A DNA stretch of 64,000 nt, taken from a virus. The notes beneath the pieces were generated by a model. That model was not told the origin of the DNA. It saw only the letters and a program-made list of their open reading frames with translations, and searched no databases. Positions within the stretch are counted from its first letter, which is position 1. The number at the start of each line of letters is the position of its first letter. This document shows, in pieces, positions 15,373 through 62,466 of the stretch. Both the position numbers and the translations under genes were made by a program. The stretch lies in the IMG/VR virus record IMGVR_UViG_3300025655_000033, positions 3,202-67,201 of that record. One strand, given 5' to 3'.

Positions 15373-15645
15373 ATGAAACTATTACTTATTATTTTAGGAA
15401 TGTCACTATTAGCTAACTTTATTTTAGGTCTTATGCACCTAAAGAAAATAAAAGATGAAGATAAAAACTTCATACCAGATGTTATAGAAGACAAAGCAAA
15501 GAAAATTAAAGAAGAAACTAAACATCGTGCTAAAAGAATTAAAGAAGAACTTAACGATGTAGGAGCTGCTATCAAAGAAGTTGGCAATCAAATTGGTGAT
15601 TTACCAGACGCAGCAAAAGGTAAAACTAGAAAAGGTAGAAAATAA
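15373..15645 (+). CDS. Small membrane-anchored coiled-coil protein
   Basis: N-terminal hydrophobic helix followed by a charged helical region. Confidence 0.55.
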   Translation: MKLLLIILGMSLLANFILGLMHLKKIKDEDKNFIPDVIEDKAKKIKEETKHRAKRIKEELNDVGAAIKEVGNQIGDLPDAAKGKTRKGRK

Positions 15646-26490: not shown

Positions 26491-26528
26491 TAGCCTATTA
26501 CCCCTTTATATTAACTACCTATTGTCAC
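26484..26528. promoter_or_regulatory. Dyad element copy 1 (TGACAWTAG...CTAWTGTCA)
   Basis: ATGACATTAGCCTATTACCCCTTTATATTAACTACCTATTGTCAC; inverted relative to copies at 33088 and 34731. Confidence 0.75.
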
Positions 26529-26876
26529 GTTGTGACTGTTTATTAATCTAATGGAAACATTATTCCATTTTCCATATTTTACTTTTTTGTTAACCAAAAA
26601 ATCAATTTTTTTAGTCCAACGTTTATTCATGCGATCACGAATATACCAAATGCCATTCATAGGTCCAGCATTCTCTACGCAAATTGTTTTACCCATAGTA
26701 AAACCTATTTTTTCAAGATCTCTTGATACTGCCACTATTCTATGCTTTTCAGCAGCATCTAAATCAATAACAAATCCTGTCGCTGTTATATTCGGAGTTT
26801 CATCTGTTTGACCAGGTACTGCATTGTAAACAGTTGCTGTTACGCATGCTACTATACTTGCTATTAATGTTTTCAT
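26511..26876 (-). CDS. 3D-domain (MltA-like) peptidoglycan-active protein with signal-like N-terminus
   Basis: 'VTATVYN...QTD.TP.ITATG', 'VAVSRDL', 'DRMNKRW..KIDF'; start assumed at MKTLIASIVAC. Confidence 0.75.
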   Translation of the reverse strand: MKTLIASIVACVTATVYNAVPGQTDETPNITATGFVIDLDAAEKHRIVAVSRDLEKIGFTMGKTICVENAGPMNGIWYIRDRMNKRWTKKIDFLVNKKVKYGKWNNVSIRLINSHNVTIGS

Positions 26877-26912
26877 AATTTTTAATTTATATATATGTGT
26901 AAACATATTGGT

Positions 26913-50777: not shown

Positions 50778-52334
50778 ATGTCAGACGCAATTGTCAAGAA
50801 CCTAAGTTTCGGTAACGAAGCTAAGGACAAAGTATTTGAAGGTATTACAAAACTCACAAAAGCCGTTAGCTCCACGCTCGGGGCTAGCGGTAAATGTGTG
50901 ATGCTAGAAGATGGAAATGGAAGACCAATCATAACTAAAGACGGTGTAACAGTAGCAGATAGTATTATACTATTAGATCCTGTTGAAAATATGGGGGCTA
51001 CACTTTTAAAAGAAGCTGCTAGAAAAACCGTAAGTGAAGCGGGGGACGGTACAACAACCGCAACTGTATTAGCACACGCTATATTAACTGAAGCTTACAA
51101 TGTAGCTGATAAGATTAGCTCAAGAGATTTAAAAATCGGTATAGACAACGCTGTTGAGAAAGTAGTTAAATACTTAGAATCAATTTCAGTTAATATACAA
51201 GGAGATATGATAGATCAAATAGCTACTATATCTACTAACAACGATGCAGAACTTGGTAAATTAATTGGTGATGCTTTTAGATCTGTTGATGAAACAGGTG
51301 TAGTTATGATGGAAACATCGTCAGATGGTACTACAGCAGTAGAAATAGTTGACGGAGTACAATACAACAAAGGGCTAACGAACTCACATTTTGTTACAAG
51401 CAAAAGCCAAAGAGTTGCTGAATTAGAAAATCCTTATGTATTATTAGTTGAATCACCAATTGATAATATAAGACAAATTCAAAGCGTGCTAGAGTTTGTT
51501 ATAAAAGGTAATAAGTCTTTACTTGTAATCGCGGACGTAGACCAACCAGTACTTGCAACTTTAGCAATGAATAAAGTCAAAGGTAATTTAAAGATTAATG
51601 TTATCAATGCGCCAACATACGGTGTAGCTAAAAAAGAAACATTAGATGATCTTGCAATGCTAACTGGTGCTACTATTATAAACGAAGACTTAGGAGATGA
51701 TTTAGATTTAATTAATCCTCAATACCTAGGTAATTGTATAAAAAGTGTAACTACAGACGAAGAAACAATATTACAAGTTGGAGAAGTTTCAGAAGAGGTT
51801 CAAAATACTATAAAAGGTATTAAAGAAAAACTTGTTACAACTAAAGAGCCTTACGAAATAGTAAAGCTTGAAAAAAGATTAGCAAGACTAGCAGCTAAAA
51901 TAGCTATAGTAAAAGTAGGTGCTAATTCAGAAATAGAATTAAAAGAAAAGAAAGATAGAGTTGAAGATGCTATCTGCGCAACTAAAGCCGCAATCAAAGA
52001 AGGTATTGTACCTGGTGGTGGAATTGCCCTGTTAAACGCATCGGAAACAGTTAAAGCTAATACAATAGGTGAAGAAGCGCTGCTAGAGGCTATTAAGGCG
52101 CCATTTAAGACCATTTTAGAAAATGCAAGTATAGAATACCAAGAATCTAAAAGAGGCAAAGGAATGGGTTTAAATGTGATAACTGGTAAAAAGGTTAATA
52201 TGATCAAACACGGGATTATTGATCCACTACTAGTTACTAAAAGTGCACTTAGAAACGCTGCTTCAGTTGCTACAACTATTTTATCTACGGATTGTGTAAT
52301 TAATAACTTAAGGATTAATGAAGGCAATAGGTAG
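50778..52334 (+). CDS. groEL: Phage-encoded chaperonin GroEL
   Basis: 'ITKDGVTVA','AGDGTTTATVLA','EKKDRVEDA','GIVPGGG','GIIDP..VT'; no GGM tail. Confidence 0.95.
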   Translation: MSDAIVKNLSFGNEAKDKVFEGITKLTKAVSSTLGASGKCVMLEDGNGRPIITKDGVTVADSIILLDPVENMGATLLKEAARKTVSEAGDGTTTATVLAHAILTEAYNVADKISSRDLKIGIDNAVEKVVKYLESISVNIQGDMIDQIATISTNNDAELGKLIGDAFRSVDETGVVMMETSSDGTTAVEIVDGVQYNKGLTNSHFVTSKSQRVAELENPYVLLVESPIDNIRQIQSVLEFVIKGNKSLLVIADVDQPVLATLAMNKVKGNLKINVINAPTYGVAKKETLDDLAMLTGATIINEDLGDDLDLINPQYLGNCIKSVTTDEETILQVGEVSEEVQNTIKGIKEKLVTTKEPYEIVKLEKRLARLAAKIAIVKVGANSEIELKEKKDRVEDAICATKAAIKEGIVPGGGIALLNASETVKANTIGEEALLEAIKAPFKTILENASIEYQESKRGKGMGLNVITGKKVNMIKHGIIDPLLVTKSALRNAASVATTILSTDCVINNLRINEGNR

Positions 52335-53022: not shown

Positions 53023-53334
53023 ATGAACAACACAAGAGGTGGTATATTTAGTACATTAAATCCTGCTCAACAACAAGAGGTATTAGATCCTATGACTGGT
53101 ATGCCAGTTCAGCAAACTGCTGTTCCACCAGCACCTAGTAACACACTTGGTATGGCTAAACCTGTTTTTAATGATATGACTCAAACTGCTGCTCAAGGTC
53201 TTTACGGTGATGTAGAGCAAAGACAAATGTCTATGGGTAATAGAACTCCTATGTTTATGAAAGATCAAACTGGTGATGGTAAAATCACTAGAGCAGATGT
53301 TATAAAGGCAAGAGTAGAAGGTTACAAAGAATAA
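53023..53334 (+). CDS. Hypothetical protein with EF-hand/dockerin-like C-terminal loop
   Basis: 'DQTGDGKITRADV'. Confidence 0.6.
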   Translation: MNNTRGGIFSTLNPAQQQEVLDPMTGMPVQQTAVPPAPSNTLGMAKPVFNDMTQTAAQGLYGDVEQRQMSMGNRTPMFMKDQTGDGKITRADVIKARVEGYKE

Positions 53335-53576
53335 TGATTAAACTAATAAAAAATATTATGAAAAAAACTACAACACCAGCTGTAAGTAAAATAGAAGCTC
53401 ACGGCACTACTGGAGCTAATGCTTTGTGGGATGGGCCGTTAGATACTACTGGTTTTCCAATGGGTAAAGGCTCTAGCAGTGGAAAAAATGGTATGAAGGT
53501 TAATATGTCAGATGTACCTTATTCAGAAGGACCTATTACGTCTAAGACTTATGCTAAGGGAAATGGCAGGGGCTGA
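53334..53576 (+). CDS. Hypothetical protein
   Basis: 80 aa ORF coupled to neighbours. Confidence 0.55.
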   Translation: MIKLIKNIMKKTTTPAVSKIEAHGTTGANALWDGPLDTTGFPMGKGSSSGKNGMKVNMSDVPYSEGPITSKTYAKGNGRG

Positions 53577-53715
53577 TATTAAGCTTTATGCAATAAACGC
53601 AATATCTTTATTAGTTTCTATGACGAGCATCGAGCCTGTATTGAAGATCATGTTATTAGTAGTTACTATAGGGTATACTGTTAATAAGTGGTATCACTTG
53701 TATAAGAAGAAATAA
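53563..53715 (+). CDS. Putative holin/small membrane protein
   Basis: 50 aa, two hydrophobic segments, KKK tail, directly before the endolysin. Confidence 0.55.
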   Translation: MAGADIKLYAINAISLLVSMTSIEPVLKIMLLVVTIGYTVNKWYHLYKKK

Positions 53716-53716
53716 A

Positions 53717-54172
53717 ATGATTAGTAAGCATGTATCTGACAAAGAAGGTGTTTATTCAAGAACTGCACTAAGACTTGATATAGACAACACGCCTGAACCA
53801 TATCACTTGGTTAACATGCAGATAATTGCTGAACTTGTTTTTGAACCGCTTAGAGAATGGGTTAATGGACCTATTAAAATTAATTCATTTTACAGATGTA
53901 AAGAATTAAATTCAGCTATAGGCGGAAGCAATAGATCTCAGCATTGCGAGGGTAGAGCGATTGATATTGACGATACCTTTGGTCACAAGACTAATGCAGA
54001 AATGTTTGAGTATATAAAAAACAACTTAGATTTCGATCAATTAATTTGGGAATTTGGAAACGATAATAATCCTGACTGGGTGCATGTTAGTTATGTTTCT
54101 TCTGATGAAAATAGAAGAAGAATTATGAAGGCTTACAAATTAAATGGCAAATCAAAATACAAACTAATATAA
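53717..54172 (+). CDS. Peptidase M15A-family endolysin
   Basis: 'INSFYRC.ELN.AIGGS..SQH..G.AIDI', 'WVHVSY'. Confidence 0.9.
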   Translation: MISKHVSDKEGVYSRTALRLDIDNTPEPYHLVNMQIIAELVFEPLREWVNGPIKINSFYRCKELNSAIGGSNRSQHCEGRAIDIDDTFGHKTNAEMFEYIKNNLDFDQLIWEFGNDNNPDWVHVSYVSSDENRRRIMKAYKLNGKSKYKLI

Positions 54173-55720: not shown

Positions 55721-56059
55721 ATGCCATTTAAAATGAAATACTCAAGTCCTTTGAGTAAAATAAACGAAGGACCTGGTGATGACACTAAAAAAAGTAAAGG
55801 TAAATTAACTGAATCTCAAACAGAGAATCTAGTTAACGCTATCAATGAGAAGTATGGTGAAAAAATACCCACACCAACAGGCGCTAATCTTGGTAAGTTT
55901 TCTAAATTTGTTAAAAGAGGTGCTAATAGATTACAAGAAGGTGGTGCTATTCCAACATACAAACCAGCTAAAGGAGTTACTCCACAGCAGTTTGAAAACT
56001 ACTCAAAGCAAATTCAAAAAGAAAACCCTGATATTAAAGCCCAATTTAAATACAAATAA
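55721..56059 (+). CDS. Basic protein with MPFKMK N-terminus
   Basis: 112 aa. Confidence 0.6.
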   Translation: MPFKMKYSSPLSKINEGPGDDTKKSKGKLTESQTENLVNAINEKYGEKIPTPTGANLGKFSKFVKRGANRLQEGGAIPTYKPAKGVTPQQFENYSKQIQKENPDIKAQFKYK

Positions 56060-56511
56060 TGAAAGATAAAAAACCTTTTAAAGAAACAGGATTAGGTAAG
56101 TTTCTACTAGGAGCTGGTTCTACTATAATAGATGTTGTAGGTGATGTGCTTCCAGATAAAGGTCTTTTAGGAGTGGTTAAAAAATTAATAGATAAAGACC
56201 CAGACTTAAGTGCAGATCAGAAAGCTGAAGCTCATGATAGATTGGTAGAACTTTATAGATTAGAAGTAGAAGATAGAGACTCTGCTAGAAAAAGAGAGGT
56301 AAACTTAAGAAAATACGGAACAGACTGGATGTTTAATCTTACTGGCATAGTTGGATTATCAGCATTTGCTTTTTTAGTTTACACCGTAGTTACCACACAA
56401 GTACCAGAGTCAAATAAAGAAATTTTCATACATTTGATAGGAATAGTAGAAGGTGTTGCTTTGTCAATATTTGGATATTATTTTGGATCAGCAATAAAAG
56501 AAAATAAATAA
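56059..56511 (+). CDS. Holin-like membrane protein
   Basis: 'DRDSARKRE', two C-terminal TM helices, 'GYYFGS'. Confidence 0.7.
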   Translation: MKDKKPFKETGLGKFLLGAGSTIIDVVGDVLPDKGLLGVVKKLIDKDPDLSADQKAEAHDRLVELYRLEVEDRDSARKREVNLRKYGTDWMFNLTGIVGLSAFAFLVYTVVTTQVPESNKEIFIHLIGIVEGVALSIFGYYFGSAIKENK

Positions 56512-56783: not shown

Positions 56784-57010
56784 TGGCTTCTGTTATAAGA
56801 AAAATAAGTATAGGTTCTGACTACAAGAATGACGCTATGCACTATGCTGTTGGTCAATCTGTTTATGGTGGCCATGAGATAGCCTATATATTATTCGACG
56901 AAGAAGATAGCTCTTATAACATTCACATAAAGAAAAGCAACGAGGTAATGCCATGGAAGAAGTTTAATTCTAACATGGCAATATCTGTTGAGTATGATCT
57001 CGAGTACTAA
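56783..57010 (+). CDS. Hypothetical protein
   Basis: 75 aa, TAATG-coupled. Confidence 0.6.
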   Translation: MASVIRKISIGSDYKNDAMHYAVGQSVYGGHEIAYILFDEEDSSYNIHIKKSNEVMPWKKFNSNMAISVEYDLEY

Positions 57011-57615
57011 TGAGAAGTATTTACGACTTCATTGTGAAGCCAGTCGGCAAGCGCTATGACAACGAAAAAAAAGTTGGCGATAAAACACTTGTTACAAATT
57101 CGTCAATAGAGAGCTATAAATCTGTAAGTAATTACGCTGAAGTAATAGCAACTCCTTTAGCCTATAACACAGGCATTAGTGTTGGTGATATTGTGGTTAT
57201 ACATCACAATGTGTTTAGGAGGTTTTATGATATGAAAGGAAATCAAAAAGATAGTAGATCAATGTTTATTGATGGATTATATTTTGTTGCTCCTGATCAA
57301 ATATATTTATACGGAAAACCTAAAAAATGGAAAACGTTTAATGATAGATGTTTTATTATTCCAATTAAAAATAAAGATAGCTTCTCTCTTGAAAAAGAGC
57401 AAAAGCTTATTGGTATACTTAAATACGGTAATAGTTCCTTACAAGCGCTAGAAATCAATCCTGGGGACCTTGTAGGTTATACTCCTGGCGGAGAATTTGA
57501 ATTCGTTGTTGATGAGGAAAGATTATACTGTATGAAATCTAATGATATTGTAATTAAATATGAATACCAAGGAAACGAAGAAGAATATAATCCTAGCTGG
57601 GCAAAAAGCAGTTGA
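57010..57615 (+). CDS. Tandem GroES-like domain protein
   Basis: Two repeats ending 'ISVGDIV' and 'INPGDLVGY...VDEERLYCM..NDIV'. Confidence 0.55.
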   Translation: MRSIYDFIVKPVGKRYDNEKKVGDKTLVTNSSIESYKSVSNYAEVIATPLAYNTGISVGDIVVIHHNVFRRFYDMKGNQKDSRSMFIDGLYFVAPDQIYLYGKPKKWKTFNDRCFIIPIKNKDSFSLEKEQKLIGILKYGNSSLQALEINPGDLVGYTPGGEFEFVVDEERLYCMKSNDIVIKYEYQGNEEEYNPSWAKSS

Positions 57616-57832
57616 GGAATTAATAAAAGTAGCTAGAGAAAAAATAGTTGATTCAGATGATGATATATCAGCTGATAGATTAAAAAACGCTGCTGCTACA
57701 AAGAAATTAGCAATATTCGATGCTTTTGAAATACTTTCACGTATTGAACAAGAAGAACAATTGTTAAATGATGAATCTGCTGATTCACCACAAAAAAATT
57801 TCAGAGGTTTCGCTGAAGGTAGATCTAAGTAA
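57560..57832 (+). CDS. Putative terminase small subunit
   Basis: 90 aa helical protein TAATG-coupled to terL. Confidence 0.45.
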   Translation: MNTKETKKNIILAGQKAVEELIKVAREKIVDSDDDISADRLKNAAATKKLAIFDAFEILSRIEQEEQLLNDESADSPQKNFRGFAEGRSK

Positions 57833-60057
57833 TGTACGAGCAAACACTATACAAAGTACTGCCTGATCACGTTAAGTCTAAAACCATAAAAACCCAAAAT
57901 AGATATAAAAAATGGGAATATGGTTATAACAAAGAACACGATGTTGTTGTTATAAGCAAGACTGGAAAGATTGGAGAAATATATGAAATACAAGGATTAA
58001 AAATAGCTTTACCTTACATAGATAAAGCTTATTCAAGATCTGAAAATAAATTAGATCAGTATTGGGAGTCTCATAAAATTCCAACAGAGTTATCAAAGAT
58101 TAAAACAATTTTTGAATGGGACACTTATCCTGATCACTTTAAAAACAAATGGTATGAATATATTGATCAAGAGTTTGAGTACAGGGAAAAAGGTTTTTCG
58201 TTTTATAACAAAGGTGTTCCTACTTATATCACTGGCACTCATTACATGTACTTGCAGTGGACCAAGATTGATGTTGGGCAACCAGACTTTAGGGAAGCAA
58301 ATAGATTATTCTTTATCTTCTGGGAAGCTTGCATGGCAGATAGCAGATGTTTCGGAATGTGCTACCTTAAGAATAGGAGGTCCGGTTTTAGCTTCATGGC
58401 CAGCGGAGCAGCAGTTCATATGGCAACAATATCTTCTGATGCGAGATTCGGGATCTTATCGAAATCAGGAGCAGATGCTAAGAAGATGTTTACAGATAAG
58501 GTGGTACCTATATCAATCAACTATCCTTTCTTCTTCAAACCAATTCAGGACGGAATGGACAGGCCGAAGACCGAGCTCGCCTACCGTGTACCCGCGTCCA
58601 AAATCACCAGAAAGTCCGTCGATAAGGTATCCATTGCCAAAAACGAATTACAGGGACTTGATACGACCATCGACTGGAAAAACACCGGTGATAACTCGTA
58701 CGACGGTGAAAAGCTCAAGCTTTTAGTACATGATGAATCAGGTAAATGGGAGAGACCTGATAATATATTAAATAACTGGAGGGTTACAAAAACAACTCTA
58801 AGACTTGGTAGTAGAATTATTGGTAAGTGTATGATGGGATCAACATCAAACGCTTTAGATAAAGGAGGTGAAAACTTTAAAAAACTTTATTATGACTCAG
58901 ACGTTACCAAGAGAAACCGCAACGGACAGACTAGTTCAGGATTATATTCTTTGTTCATACCTATGGAATGGAACTACGAAGGATTCATTGATACTTATGG
59001 AATACCTGTCTTCGACACTCCAGAGAAACCCGTTAAAGCAGCGGATGGATCGTTAGTTGAATACGGTGTTATAGAACACTGGCAAAATGAAGTTGATGGT
59101 TTAAAGAATGACCAAGATGGTTTAAACGAAATGTATCGTCAGTTTCCAAGAACTGAACAACATGCATTTAGAGATGAGGCTAAGCAATCACTGTTTAACC
59201 TTACAAAAATATACCAACAAATAGATTACAATGAAGATCTTAGGAATACCTCTGTAGTAACAACAGGTAGTTTTGCATGGGAAAACGGTATGCCAGATAC
59301 TAGAGTAGTATTCAATCCGCATAAAGATGGAAGGTTTAAAATAACATGGGTACCACCTAAACATCTTCAAAACCAAGTGATAATAAAGAATGGTGCTAAA
59401 TGGCCAGGAAATGAACAGCTTGGTGCATTTGGATGCGATAGTTACGATATATCAGGTACTGTTGATCAAAGAGGTTCAAATGGATCTCTACACGGTTTAA
59501 CTAAATTTTCTATGGAAGATGTTCCACCGAATCATTTTTTCTTAGAATATATAGCAAGACCACAAACTGCTGAGATATTTTTTGAAGAAGTTTTAATGGC
59601 TTGTATTTTTTATGGTATGCCAATACTAGCTGAAAACAACAAGCCTAGACTTTTATATCACTTTAAAAGAAGAGGTTATAGAGGTTTTTCAATGAATAGA
59701 CCAGATAAGATTTGGAATAAATTATCTGTAACAGAAAGAGAGATAGGTGGAATACCTAACTCTAGTGAAGATATAAAACAAGCACACGCTGCTGCTATTG
59801 AAACCTATGTTGAATCTCATATTGGGTTGTCTGATACTGGTTACGGAGATATGTATTTCCAAAGAACACTAGAAGATTGGGCTAGATTTAATATAAACAA
59901 TAGAACAAGTCACGATGCGTCTATTAGTTCAGGTTTAGCTTTAATGGCTTGCAATAAACATAGGTATGTACCTATAAACAGAATAGAAAGACAACCTGTT
60001 AATCTAGGTATAAAAAGATACAATAATGATGGTAGTACCTCAAAAATTATAACGTAA
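57832..60057 (+). CDS. terL: Terminase large subunit
   Basis: 'YLKNRRSGFS' Walker A, 'LVHDESGKW' Walker B, 'FGCDSYD' and 'HDASISS' nuclease motifs; precedes portal. Confidence 0.9.
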   Translation: MYEQTLYKVLPDHVKSKTIKTQNRYKKWEYGYNKEHDVVVISKTGKIGEIYEIQGLKIALPYIDKAYSRSENKLDQYWESHKIPTELSKIKTIFEWDTYPDHFKNKWYEYIDQEFEYREKGFSFYNKGVPTYITGTHYMYLQWTKIDVGQPDFREANRLFFIFWEACMADSRCFGMCYLKNRRSGFSFMASGAAVHMATISSDARFGILSKSGADAKKMFTDKVVPISINYPFFFKPIQDGMDRPKTELAYRVPASKITRKSVDKVSIAKNELQGLDTTIDWKNTGDNSYDGEKLKLLVHDESGKWERPDNILNNWRVTKTTLRLGSRIIGKCMMGSTSNALDKGGENFKKLYYDSDVTKRNRNGQTSSGLYSLFIPMEWNYEGFIDTYGIPVFDTPEKPVKAADGSLVEYGVIEHWQNEVDGLKNDQDGLNEMYRQFPRTEQHAFRDEAKQSLFNLTKIYQQIDYNEDLRNTSVVTTGSFAWENGMPDTRVVFNPHKDGRFKITWVPPKHLQNQVIIKNGAKWPGNEQLGAFGCDSYDISGTVDQRGSNGSLHGLTKFSMEDVPPNHFFLEYIARPQTAEIFFEEVLMACIFYGMPILAENNKPRLLYHFKRRGYRGFSMNRPDKIWNKLSVTEREIGGIPNSSEDIKQAHAAAIETYVESHIGLSDTGYGDMYFQRTLEDWARFNINNRTSHDASISSGLALMACNKHRYVPINRIERQPVNLGIKRYNNDGSTSKIIT
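58154..58726 (+). CDS. Candidate overprinted lipoprotein in the +1 frame of terL
   Basis: 190 stop-free codons; basic N-region, hydrophobic core and LITC lipobox; Pro/Arg-rich C-terminus; locally raised GC. Confidence 0.45.
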   Translation: MNILIKSLSTGKKVFRFITKVFLLISLALITCTCSGPRLMLGNQTLGKQIDYSLSSGKLAWQIADVSECATLRIGGPVLASWPAEQQFIWQQYLLMRDSGSYRNQEQMLRRCLQIRWYLYQSTILSSSNQFRTEWTGRRPSSPTVYPRPKSPESPSIRYPLPKTNYRDLIRPSTGKTPVITRTTVKSSSF

Positions 60058-62466
60058 ATGAATATATACACAAATACCAATAGTTCTTTTCCAAGCCAAG
60101 TGGTTAGCGATGTGGAAAAAGCATCGTTAGAGTATGGTATTCAAGTGGCAAGAGCCATTGAACAAGAATGGTTTGATCAAGGAAGAACTAATGCTAACAG
60201 GTATCAAACAAATTATAATAACTTTCATCAGTTAAGATTATACGCTAGAGGTGAGCAGTCTATACAAAAATATAAAGATGAGTTGGCTATTAATGGTGAC
60301 TTGTCTTATCTTAATTTAGATTGGAAACCAGTACCTGTTATATCTAAGTTTGTAGATATAGTTGTTAACGGTATGACGCAGAAAGGTTATCAAGTCAAAG
60401 CAATGGCTACAGATCCTTTCGCATTAAAGCAAAGAACTAATTACGCGTTTAACGCTTTAAGAGATATTGAAAACAAAGCATACATAGATCAAATAAATGC
60501 AGAGTTTGGACAGAATTTATATGCTTCTGCTGAACCAGACAAACTACCAGATAACAAAGAAGAGTTAGATCTTTTTATGCAATTAAGCTATAAGCAGAGC
60601 ATAGAGATAGCTGAAGAAGAAGTAATAAAGACTGTTTTAAATCAAAACAAGTACGACGAAACTAGAAAAAGAGTAGCTCAAGATTTAACGATATTAGGTA
60701 TATCTTGTGTTAAAACAAGCTTTAATGTTTCAAATGGTATTGTAGTTGACTACGTAGATCCAGCTTATTTAGTTTATTCTTATACAGAAGATCCTAACTT
60801 TGAAGATATATATTATGTTGGTGAAGTTAAATCGATAACTATACCTGAATTAAAGAAACAATTCCCTTATATATCTGAAGAAGAGTTAAAAGATATTCAA
60901 AACATGCCTGGCAACAACCAATATATAACTGGTTGGGCAAATTATGATGAAAATACTGTGCAAGTTTTATACTTTGAATACAAGACCTATAACAATCAAG
61001 TATTTAAAATAAAACAAACTGAGAATGGGTTAGAAAAAGCTATTGAAAAAGATGATAGTTTTAATCCTCCTGAAAATGATAACTTTGAAAGAGTATCAAG
61101 AACAATAGAGGTTTTATACTCTGGTGCTAAAGTATTAGGTAATAATACTATGTTAGAGTGGAAATTAGCTGAGAATATGACAAGACCTTATGCTGATACC
61201 ACTAAAGTAGTTATGAATTACACTATAGCTGCTCCAAGAATGTACAAAGGAAGAATTGAGTCTGTAGTTAGCAAAATAACTGGTTTTGCTGATATGATTC
61301 AATTAACTCACTTAAAGCTACAACAAGTAATGTCAAGAATAGTACCAGATGGTGTATTCTTGGATATGGATGGTTTAGCGGAAGTTGATTTAGGTAATGG
61401 AACAAACTACAACCCAGCGGAAGCATTAAATATGTATTTCCAAACGGGTAGTGTAGTTGGTAGATCACTTACTCAAGATGGTGAATTAAATAGAGGTAAA
61501 GTACCAGTTCAAGAATTATCTTCATCATCTGGTCAAGGTAAAATAGCTTCATTGATAAACACTTACAACTATTATCTACAAATGATAAGGGATGTAACTG
61601 GATTAAACGAAGCAAGAGATGGTAGCAACCCAGACAAAGACGCTTTATTAGGATTGCAAAAGATGGCCGCTAATCAATCTAATGTTGCTACTAGACACAT
61701 ATTACAGTCTATGTTCTATTTAACCGTTAGAACATGCGAGAATGTCAGTATGAGGGTTTCAGACGTGCTTAACTTCCCTTTAACTAAAATGTCTTTGGTA
61801 AATAGTATAAATACTTTTAATACTTCTGTGTTAGAGGAAATAGAGTACTTAAATCTTCACGATTTTGGTATATTCTTAGAATTAGAACCAGAAGAAGAAG
61901 AAAAATCACAACTTGAGCAAAACATACAAATAGCTTTACAAGCTGGTATGATTGGTTTAGAAGACGCTATAGATATTAGAGATATTTCTAATTTAAAATT
62001 AGCTAATCAACTTCTTAAGTTTAGACAGAAGAAAAAACAAGAAGCTGTAGAGCAAGCGCAGTTAGCTAATATACAAGCGCAAGCGCAGGCAAACTCTGAA
62101 GCAAATGAAAGAGCTGCTATGGCTGAAGTTCAAAAACAACAAGCTCTTACTCAAGAGAAAGTTAGTATAGAACAAGCTAAATCTCAGTTTGAAATACAAA
62201 GAATGCAGACAGAAGCTCAAATAAAAAGAGAGCTAATGGCTGAGGAATTTAATTATCAAATGCAATTAGCGCAAATAAAAGCTAATGCAGAAGCTGGTAA
62301 AATTGCTGAAGTTGAAGATCGCAAAGATAAAAGAACAAAAATACAAGCTACACAACAATCTGAGTTAATAGATCAAAGACAAAATGATTTATTACCTAAA
62401 GATTTTGAATCTCAAGGGAACGACACTCTTGGTGGATTCAACCTAGAGCAGTTTGCTCCTAGGTAA
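60058..62466 (+). CDS. Portal protein
   Basis: 802 aa between terL and scaffold; 'IRDVTGLNEARDGS'; Gln-rich C-terminal helix. Confidence 0.85.
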   Translation: MNIYTNTNSSFPSQVVSDVEKASLEYGIQVARAIEQEWFDQGRTNANRYQTNYNNFHQLRLYARGEQSIQKYKDELAINGDLSYLNLDWKPVPVISKFVDIVVNGMTQKGYQVKAMATDPFALKQRTNYAFNALRDIENKAYIDQINAEFGQNLYASAEPDKLPDNKEELDLFMQLSYKQSIEIAEEEVIKTVLNQNKYDETRKRVAQDLTILGISCVKTSFNVSNGIVVDYVDPAYLVYSYTEDPNFEDIYYVGEVKSITIPELKKQFPYISEEELKDIQNMPGNNQYITGWANYDENTVQVLYFEYKTYNNQVFKIKQTENGLEKAIEKDDSFNPPENDNFERVSRTIEVLYSGAKVLGNNTMLEWKLAENMTRPYADTTKVVMNYTIAAPRMYKGRIESVVSKITGFADMIQLTHLKLQQVMSRIVPDGVFLDMDGLAEVDLGNGTNYNPAEALNMYFQTGSVVGRSLTQDGELNRGKVPVQELSSSSGQGKIASLINTYNYYLQMIRDVTGLNEARDGSNPDKDALLGLQKMAANQSNVATRHILQSMFYLTVRTCENVSMRVSDVLNFPLTKMSLVNSINTFNTSVLEEIEYLNLHDFGIFLELEPEEEEKSQLEQNIQIALQAGMIGLEDAIDIRDISNLKLANQLLKFRQKKKQEAVEQAQLANIQAQAQANSEANERAAMAEVQKQQALTQEKVSIEQAKSQFEIQRMQTEAQIKRELMAEEFNYQMQLAQIKANAEAGKIAEVEDRKDKRTKIQATQQSELIDQRQNDLLPKDFESQGNDTLGGFNLEQFAPR

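Follow-up and report, generated by a model that had tools for sequence, protein, structure and literature searches.

Genes nested within another gene are most familiar from a few well-studied systems. Rz1 of phage lambda, an o-spanin with a tail of about 40 residues, is encoded in the +1 frame of the longer late gene Rz, and spanins are normally core lysis genes. Protein E of phiX174 combines an N-terminal membrane helix with a replaceable basic C-terminal part, and its gene lies nested in the +1 frame of the late gene D. Disruptin (gp28 of phage phiKT) is the product of a small stand-alone gene and acts as a cationic, outer-membrane-disrupting lysis protein in a phage without spanins. Products of overprinting are often disordered, with a high content of Arg, Ser, Thr and Pro. 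To our knowledge, nested genes of some length on the strand of their host gene are well known from tiny phages and from Rz/Rz1, while large tailed phages offer hardly any documented case. Here we analyse an open reading frame (ORF) of 190 codons that lies within terL, the gene for the terminase large subunit, in 64,000 nucleotides of viral DNA (bases 3202-67201 of the 67.2-kb IMG/VR virus record IMGVR_UViG_3300025655_000033, which is rated complete; this whole stretch is called the window). The sequence comparisons suggest, with a probability of about 0.72, that a genuine coding gene occupies positions 58154..58726, overprinted on terL in its +1 frame. The overlap and its parts are as follows.

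58154..58726, + strand: nested +1-frame ORF of 190 codons plus a TAG stop (58724..58726), taken from the ORF list and the sequence.
58154..58156, + strand: conserved start ATG, made up of the last two bases of terL Tyr108 (TAT) and the G of the next codon.
58154..58213, + strand: n-region, residues 1-20 of the translation, net positive (K6, K12, K13, K20).
58214..58261, + strand: hydrophobic Leu-rich segment plus CTCSG, residues 21-36, recognised by fixed terL third bases and Kyte-Doolittle hydropathy.
58262..58723, + strand: basic, Ser/Thr/Pro/Arg/Gln-rich tail, residues 37-190, poorly conserved, recognised by composition and low predicted model confidence (pLDDT).
58192..58725, + strand: tract of terL with a high G+C content (GC), also at third codon positions (GC3), coinciding with the nested ORF.
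57832..60057, + strand: terL, 741 amino acids, the host gene of the overlap (ORF list; phrog_6681, E 5.3e-166).

The first ATG of the nested frame is found at 58154, and (58154-57832) mod 3 = 1 places it in the +1 frame relative to terL. A TTG at 58112 provides an alternative upstream start (ORF 58112..58726, 204 codons), and in this longer form the ORF is the longest nested one in the window, followed by an antisense ORF of 175 codons. A 190-codon +1-frame ORF at 58154-58726 inside terL had been pointed out in a first-pass annotation of the window, and the ORF list confirms it. The peptides quoted there (MNILIKSLSTGKKVFRFITK, VFLLISLALI and TCTC) as well as the Pro/Arg/Ser-rich end are all present in the translation, in which Cys32 is encoded at 58247..58249 and Cys34 at 58253..58255. 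The same annotation had described GC-richer terL codons over the ORF, and these are real: in 150-nt segments the GC content amounts to 0.41-0.51 at 58250-58700 compared with about 0.27-0.37 in the flanks.

A scan of IMG/VR returned at least 600 terL relatives, the best 80 of which (75-95% amino acid identity) were combined with the window terL in a codon alignment of 81 rows. Positions in this alignment are given below as index, the 0-based codon of the window's terL (residue number = index + 1); the nested ORF occupies index 107-297. Rows that are free of +1 stops over index 107-294 constitute group A (39 of 81), rows with 1-5 stops group B (19), and rows with 6 or more stops group C (23). 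A +1 ORF spanning at least index 112-240 (141 codons or more) is found in 58 of the 81 rows.

Residue-specific constraint on the synonymous positions of terL is the strongest evidence in the alignment for a nested gene. It is apparent at the proposed start, where 37 of 39 group A alleles encode a +1 Met. Tyr108 is TAT rather than TAC in these alleles (36:2), while the corresponding ratio over eight further Tyr columns conserved in the region is 135:171 (Fisher p 3.7e-10); the start codon postulated in the first-pass annotation is thus conserved. Four NCN codons (index 129, 130, 133 and 135) contribute to the hydrophobic segment; in group A, 150 of their 152 occurrences end in T, which yields Leu in the +1 frame. 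This contrasts with the tail, where T occupies the third position of 213 of 1426 NCN codons, and with the same four columns in the ORF-less group C, where T is found in 47 of 89 (47:42). If each of nine deep lineages is represented only once, T is still present in 33 of 34 codons. Just downstream, group A uses TAC for Tyr at index 139 and TTG for Leu at index 140 without exception (39/39 each), and CAG for Gln at index 141 in 35 of 39 alleles; these codons read Thr-Cys-Ser in the +1 frame, and mixtures occur at the same positions in group C. The fixed third bases preserve the +1 motif LL[TI]LL[VA]L..CTCSG. CTCSG or CTCNG is present in all 39 stop-free alleles, so that the cysteines emphasised in the first-pass annotation are indeed retained there, and CTCSG is kept in 9 of 19 group B rows. 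Across the overlap, index 120-160 is the only part in which the synonymous entropy of terL dips (0.51-0.58); nearly fixed columns make up 23% of index 120-140. The entropy pattern indicates sequence constraint on some 45 residues at the N-terminus of the +1 protein and none on the remainder.

A second line of evidence is the maintenance of the open frame. The number of stops to be expected was estimated by shuffling synonymous codons within the region, which alters neither the terL protein nor local codon counts. By this measure, group A contains 0 +1 stops where 4.36 are expected (z -3.46), group B 2.47 where 5.93 are expected, and group C 8.39 where 10.1 are expected; stops are also depleted over all rows together. 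Three control stretches of terL give z values between -0.1 and -1.0, the +2 frame of the region shows no depletion, and in group A the +1 frame is the sole stop-free one among the five alternative frames. Nine group A lineages that share less than 80% nucleotide identity in the region are all stop-free, with a shuffle probability of zero stops that ranges from <0.0002 to 0.019 for each, and the weight of the frame-maintenance case appears to come from this repetition. The median pairwise synonymous-codon mismatch of group A in the region amounts to 0.486; synonymous sites are therefore saturated, and shared descent is unable to explain the openness. Natural variants point in the same direction, as 13 of 13 listed inside the ORF keep the frame open and 12 are silent in terL (four public runs; a small sample).

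These numbers bear on the simplest alternative, an open frame that exists by chance and is under no selection. Its basis would be an inherent scarcity of +1 stops in this part of terL, as judged from the ORF-less group. Yet in the control stretches about 7% of the +1 codons are stops, corresponding to a probability of about 2.5e-5 for a stop-free run of at least 140 codons, and 58 of 81 rows contain such a run. Chance would also leave the site-specific third-base constraints without a cause, and we consider it hardly credible.

The nested ORF coincides with an unusual base composition. GC3 is 0.468 in the region in group A, compared with 0.18-0.25 in the remaining terL, and falls to 0.336 in group B and to the baseline of 0.206 in group C. 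The increase affects all four second-base classes (0.37-0.55 vs 0.10-0.28) and hence does not simply reflect stop avoidance, for which only codons with a second-position T matter. In the +1 read-out, the hydrophobic sequence that group C would encode (L+I+V+M+F 40%) turns into a polar, basic one in group A (23%), with a tail composed of 11.1% T, 10.9% R, 9.7% S and 6.6% P. The +1 stops of the 58 ORF-bearing rows cluster at index 294 (19 rows), 322 (12), 324 (8), 272 (6), 262 (5) and a few other positions, and the fall in GC3 lies no more than about 5 codons from the stop of the respective allele. In the stop-294 alleles it declines from 0.82 at index 285-289 to 0.27 at index 290-294, and in the stop-322/324 alleles from 0.95 at index 310-314 to 0.06 at index 325-329. 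Within the same sequences, selection would thus favour T where the hydrophobic segment is encoded and G/C over the tail, a combination that seems hard to explain except by selection at the protein level.

Alleles with and without the nested ORF occur side by side. Groups A and C are interleaved on the tree of terL calculated from outside the region, and at least 10-15 changes would be needed to account for their distribution. In four A/C sister pairs the terL protein is 0.9-1.0 identical across the region, while the share of common synonymous codons is 0.2-0.45 in the region vs 0.6-0.9 outside. Two further rows, L071 and L058, are 96.1% identical in the region, and their flanks are closest to other rows (87% and 84%). 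The sister pairs and this pair imply that the segment has been exchanged between backbones. Group B alleles show intermediate GC3, partly different starts and earlier stops, and may represent variant or decaying alleles. Outside the set of 80, the terL of Elemovirus (46%) contains many +1 stops and no nested ORF.

Both composition and recombination can also be read in a different way, namely that a non-coding cause has raised GC3 (DNA acquired from a donor of higher GC content, biased gene conversion, or selection acting on the mRNA or the speed of translation) and that the ORF merely follows, as stop codons are AT-rich. Consistent with such a by-product, openness tracks GC3 over groups A, B and C, the segment recombines, the sequence of the tail is not conserved, and shuffles confined to 40 codons cut the expected stops to only about 2-4 per sequence. 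However, a cause of this kind leaves unexplained why T is held in 150 of 152 NCN codons within a GC3-rich tract, why TAC and TTG are invariant in 39 of 39 alleles and why TAT prevails 36:2 at the start. It does not account for zero stops in nine deep lineages either. The terL of MW202828 (64% amino acid identity) has a GC3 of about 0.41 throughout, yet about 12 +1 stops over index 100-330 (counted by eye), so that a high GC3 alone does not open the +1 frame. Moreover, the values of 0.8-0.95 reached in the tract are far above any genome-wide value seen in a relative, and they drop no more than about 5 codons from each stop. On balance, we regard a by-product of this sort as unlikely.

A number of observations weigh against an overprinted gene. 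The groups were defined afterwards by outcome, which renders the stop figure for group A conditional, and the tree was calculated with FastTree only. The ORF-less group has 8.4 +1 stops per 187 codons compared with about 11-15 in the control stretches; given this intrinsic poverty of the region in +1 stops and the outcome of the local shuffles, the signal per sequence is modest. Since a stop is expected soon after the end of any GC-rich tract, the coincidence of tract end and stop is weakly diagnostic alone. Pairwise synonymous mismatch shows no overall dip, the value in the region (0.486) being higher than that outside (0.383). The local dip in synonymous rate anticipated in the first-pass annotation is found at index 120-160 and fails to appear in the tail, where entropy lies above the gene average (0.70-0.84 at index 160-320 vs about 0.5-0.65 elsewhere in terL). 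The same annotation had regarded a broken frame or a lost Cys in close relatives, together with no detected translation, as fatal to the gene. The frame is kept in the closest relative (L001, 95% amino acid identity) and 57 others; it is broken in 23 of the 81 terL genes, which lack the nested ORF and form a separate allele class with baseline GC3. Because of these 23, the nested gene has to be considered accessory.

Data on expression and homology add to this list. The sequence upstream of the nested ATG is A-rich and ranks at the 92nd percentile among all window ATGs, but reaches only the 18th percentile of 62 presumed true starts. Twenty public runs contain the stretch, six of which are RNA libraries, and contigs of three RNA libraries and one DNA run (X1, marine) cover parts of 57600..59200; the gaps in this coverage are meaningless. 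The RNA-library contigs prove neither transcription nor translation and reveal neither strand nor transcript ends, as terL itself is transcribed and DNA carry-over is possible. No Pfam or PHROGs family matched the nested product at E 0.1, no tblastn match at E 1 was obtained among 50,697 phage records, and the best score in the ESM Atlas was 0.80, which is below the usable level of recognition and yielded no lead. A profile search of 1.84 billion representatives produced 151 matches to cluster representatives (E ≤1e-30 for 80), and none of the five clusters looked up carries a name. Seven of the 151 matches were inspected: P0001, which has the length of the ORF, corresponds to the nested ORF itself, and six longer ones (P0016, P0017, P0028, P0035, P0087 and P0020) are chimeras of terL frame and +1 frame, probably due to assembly frameshifts or indels and possibly natural frameshifted variants of terL. 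None of the seven points to a stand-alone homologue.

Two other origins of a product from this region were considered, of which the first was set aside and the second rejected. Programmed frameshifting from terL lacks a canonical slippery heptamer just upstream (by eye), most alleles have +1 stops at index 86-100, and the ATG is conserved. An antisense gene is contradicted by at least two stops in every minus-strand frame of every stop-free allele.

Taken together, the alignment lends good support to a gene that is overprinted on terL in the +1 frame and whose product has a hydrophobic, signal-like N-terminus. The hidden +1-frame gene of the first-pass annotation is borne out by frame maintenance, start conservation, site-specific constraint and a GC3 tract bounded by the stop. 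The predicted product begins with an n-region whose median net charge is +2 over the 58 ORF-bearing alleles (+5 in the window allele). The Kyte-Doolittle maximum over 19 residues has a median of 2.09 and a minimum of 1.65 in 36 alleles, and no second hydrophobic segment was detected in them, the maximum score outside the N-terminus being 1.09. Hence, a positive n-region, a hydrophobic h-region and small neutral residues thereafter follow each other in the layout of a Sec-type signal peptide or signal anchor. The N-terminus is likely to be membrane-targeting, and this layout makes membrane insertion or export the most likely fate of the protein. The residues T, C, S and G after the helix would fit a cleavage region or the end of the helix. 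An AlphaFold model of the nested product (36-row alignment) contains a helix at residues 2-34 with a pLDDT of 50-68, beyond which pLDDT is <50 (mean 42), and the tail is probably disordered. The part after the hydrophobic segment comprises 150-180 residues (median 152) with 6.6% Pro; over the 58 alleles, the tail has a median net charge of +16 and consists to 51% of S+T+P+G+R+Q.

The first-pass annotation had gone further and assumed an outer-membrane lipoprotein, either an Rz1-like o-spanin or a lipoprotein exclusion factor. Several features are in keeping with this assignment: a positive n-region and a Leu-rich h-region are directly followed by a conserved Cys, a second Cys is held by TTG and the preceding Thr by TAC (39/39 each), the gene is nested in the +1 frame as is Rz1, and the tail is enriched in Pro, Ser and Thr. 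Furthermore, a heuristic scan of all six frames of the window (not SignalP or LipoP) revealed no lipoprotein-type signal; no spanin is thus recognisable, which agrees with the earlier statement that none is present elsewhere. However, a canonical lipobox, defined by the regular expression [LVI][ASTVI][GAS]C in the first 60 residues (neither LipoP nor SignalP), was found in 0 of 58 ORF-bearing alleles. The residue preceding each Cys is Thr or Ile, and never Gly, Ala or Ser. In place of the short Pro-rich mature part of an o-spanin (tens of residues), 150-180 residues with a net charge of about +16 follow the Cys. The ORF is embedded in terL rather than in the lysis cassette and is separated from the endolysin by about 4 kb; an i-spanin partner is neither overlapping nor adjacent, and the ORF is missing from 23 of 81 relatives. 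The product also lacks both hallmarks of a u-spanin, the lipoprotein signal and the C-terminal transmembrane domain. The lipoprotein assignment is therefore not supported and seems quite improbable.

If the gene is real, its product might adopt the opposite topology, with the N-terminus outside and the basic tail in the cytoplasm, as in protein E of phiX174, and function as a membrane-anchored inhibitor or a nucleic-acid-binding protein. The distribution of constraint would suit this arrangement, since it is concentrated in the N-terminal ~45 residues and leaves a tail that is free in sequence and basic. The positive-inside rule would favour a cytoplasmic tail in view of its charge (+16 vs a median of +2 in the n-region), and the nesting in an essential late gene is a further point of agreement. 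On the other hand, hardly any net charge is seen in the first 20 residues beyond the helix, and the closest positive charges are those of the n-region (by eye). A holin-like gene and an endolysin are present and render a single-gene lysis protein unneeded, and no similarity to a known protein was found. This topology likewise appears improbable to us.

For the overprinted gene with an exported or inserted product, we envisage the following course of events. Ribosomes would start at the conserved internal ATG on the late terL message and synthesise a product of about 186-216 residues, consisting of a Lys-rich n-region (~20 residues), a Leu-rich segment (~17-19), CTCSG and a tail of 150-180 residues, the latter being strongly basic, rich in Ser, Thr, Pro, Arg and Gln, and probably disordered. 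Late in infection, the protein would most likely enter or cross the inner membrane of the host and act at the envelope. Both kinds of allele of the terL segment, ORF-bearing and ORF-less, occur within one phage lineage and recombine. We infer translation, membrane targeting, topology and an envelope function (lysis accessory, outer-membrane destabiliser or exclusion factor) from the sequence.

As outlined in one report, about 15% of phages have no spanins, and one of these uses a cationic peptide instead (10.1101/515445). Given this precedent and the lack of a recognisable spanin in the window, it is conceivable by analogy that a late exported cationic protein disrupts the outer membrane. The distance from the lysis cassette and the absence from 23 of 81 relatives weigh against a core role in lysis; an accessory role such as exclusion possibly fits these two findings just as well. 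More specifically, the product could be a de novo-born, Sec-targeted, cationic and disordered envelope effector of marine flavobacterial podophages, which is produced late from terL mRNA and destabilises the outer membrane or blocks superinfection where no spanin is recognisable, a picture that we offer as a doubtful one.

Compared with the systems described above, the locus presents a mixture of traits. It shares with lambda Rz1 the full nesting in the +1 frame of a longer late gene, a signal-like segment followed by Cys, and a Pro/Ser/Thr-enriched tail with little predicted structure. Unlike Rz1, the nested ORF has no lipobox in any of 58 alleles and a strongly basic tail of 150-180 residues, its host gene is terL and not an i-spanin gene, it is situated outside the lysis cassette, it is missing in 23 of 81 relatives, and its product shows no similarity to Rz1. 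The resemblance to phiX174 E lies in a +1-frame gene within an essential late gene, whose product has a constrained N-terminal hydrophobic helix and a basic, tolerant C-terminal part. Unlike E, the nested ORF is about twice as long, belongs to a 67-kb tailed phage with a holin-like gene and an endolysin, and lacks homology. With disruptin, the predicted product has in common a strongly cationic character and a phage without recognisable spanin; unlike gp28, it is overprinted on terL, comprises ~190-216 residues and carries a hydrophobic segment near its N-terminus, and no similarity is detectable. Finally, the ORF resembles overprinted viral genes in general by its Arg/Ser/Thr/Pro-rich, predicted disordered product, its narrow taxonomic range and its position in an alternative frame of an older conserved gene, and it differs from them in that alleles with and without the nested gene coexist. 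Overlapping genes arise by overprinting, and their sequence composition differs from that of other genes, as summarised in two sources (PMC8227390, PMC6195259). A literature search at the abstract level found no report of a published gene nested in terL.

Gene callers and annotators skip long same-strand nested genes, and here a gene of ~190-216 codons is located in terL, the most conserved phage marker, which is routinely employed for phylogeny and taxonomy. If the gene is real, second-frame selection and segment exchange distort terL trees and codon analyses of this lineage along some 600 nt, and widespread aquatic flavobacterial phages possess an unannotated family of membrane-targeted proteins. 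The ORF-bearing, truncated and ORF-less alleles would then represent an unusually clean system to study the birth of a gene by overprinting, its cost for the host gene and its decay. Should the product prove to be an envelope effector, the locus would amount to a before-and-after record of gene birth, including a recoding cost to an essential ATPase gene that drives GC3 from about 0.2 up to 0.95. The locus might also have a bearing on the question how spanin-less phages of Bacteroidota breach the outer membrane.

The nearest relatives of the host gene terL belong to uncultured aquatic podophages. More distant relatives (28.7-63.3% amino acid identity) come from phages of Flavobacterium, Cellulophaga, Maribacter and Tenacibaculum, and based on this relationship the phage host is probably a member of the Flavobacteriia. 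Near-identical sequence of 57600..59200 (65-86% of sampled words) was recovered from runs labelled marine, freshwater, soil and wastewater, which originate from at least 8 studies; this range is unusually broad for one phage, and no conclusion on habitat was drawn from it. The first-pass annotation had placed the overlap on the ATPase domain of terL, which could not be confirmed. A Walker-A-like KNRRSGFS (terL residues 180-187) and LLVHDE (297-302) are invariant among the aligned relatives, as read by eye, and we take them to be Walker-type ATPase motifs, no tool having produced them; the placement on the ATPase domain may hold to the extent that these motifs do. terL has no Pfam match at E 0.1, sequence and profile searches of the PDB retrieved no relative apart from one chance match at E 0.53, and an AlphaFold model of terL residues 1-430 has a pLDDT of <50 across residues 174-345. 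A GroEL-like chaperonin (50778..52334; PF00118, E 2.7e-60; phrog_5725) and a GroES-like protein (57010..57615; phrog_13932, E 7e-18) are encoded close to the packaging genes. The portal gene and the lysis cassette, which lies upstream of terL and is given for context only, map as follows.

60058..62466: portal gene, next after terL (phrog_6547, E 1.3e-142).
53512..54172, + strand: lysis cassette, composed of a holin-like ORF and an endolysin.
53512..53715, + strand: holin-like ORF of 67 amino acids directly before the endolysin, with one hydrophobic segment scored and a second seen by eye.
53717..54172, + strand: M15 peptidase endolysin (phrog_894, E 1.7e-26; PF08291, E 2e-13).

The holin-like ORF overlaps the 3' end of a preceding ORF of 80 amino acids (53334..53576) and ends two bases before the endolysin start. 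A protein of 150 amino acids with two C-terminal hydrophobic segments is encoded at 56059..56511. Directly after a gene for 2084 amino acids, an ORF of 90 amino acids (15373..15645, + strand) starts with a hydrophobic segment (Kyte-Doolittle 2.08) and continues with a Lys/Glu-rich, helix-looking part; this layout recalls an i-spanin or a holin-type protein, and no partner lipoprotein was seen. An ORF of 131 amino acids on the minus strand (26511..26906) has a signal-like N-terminus with IVAC, lipobox-like if read from an internal Met, which the stricter scan did not flag; judging from its sequence, the product may be secreted or lipid-anchored.

A second short stretch of terL is also unusual at synonymous positions. 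At index 360-400 (58912..59032) synonymous entropy is 0.34-0.44 vs about 0.55-0.65, in ORF-bearing and ORF-less groups alike, and GC3 is raised (0.37-0.5 in pair profiles). A +1 ORF of 62 codons (58868..59056) extends over this stretch; 94% of the 81 rows lack a +1 stop there, with an expected number as low as 0.41. The low entropy could reflect a nucleotide-level element or a strong codon preference at a conserved motif.

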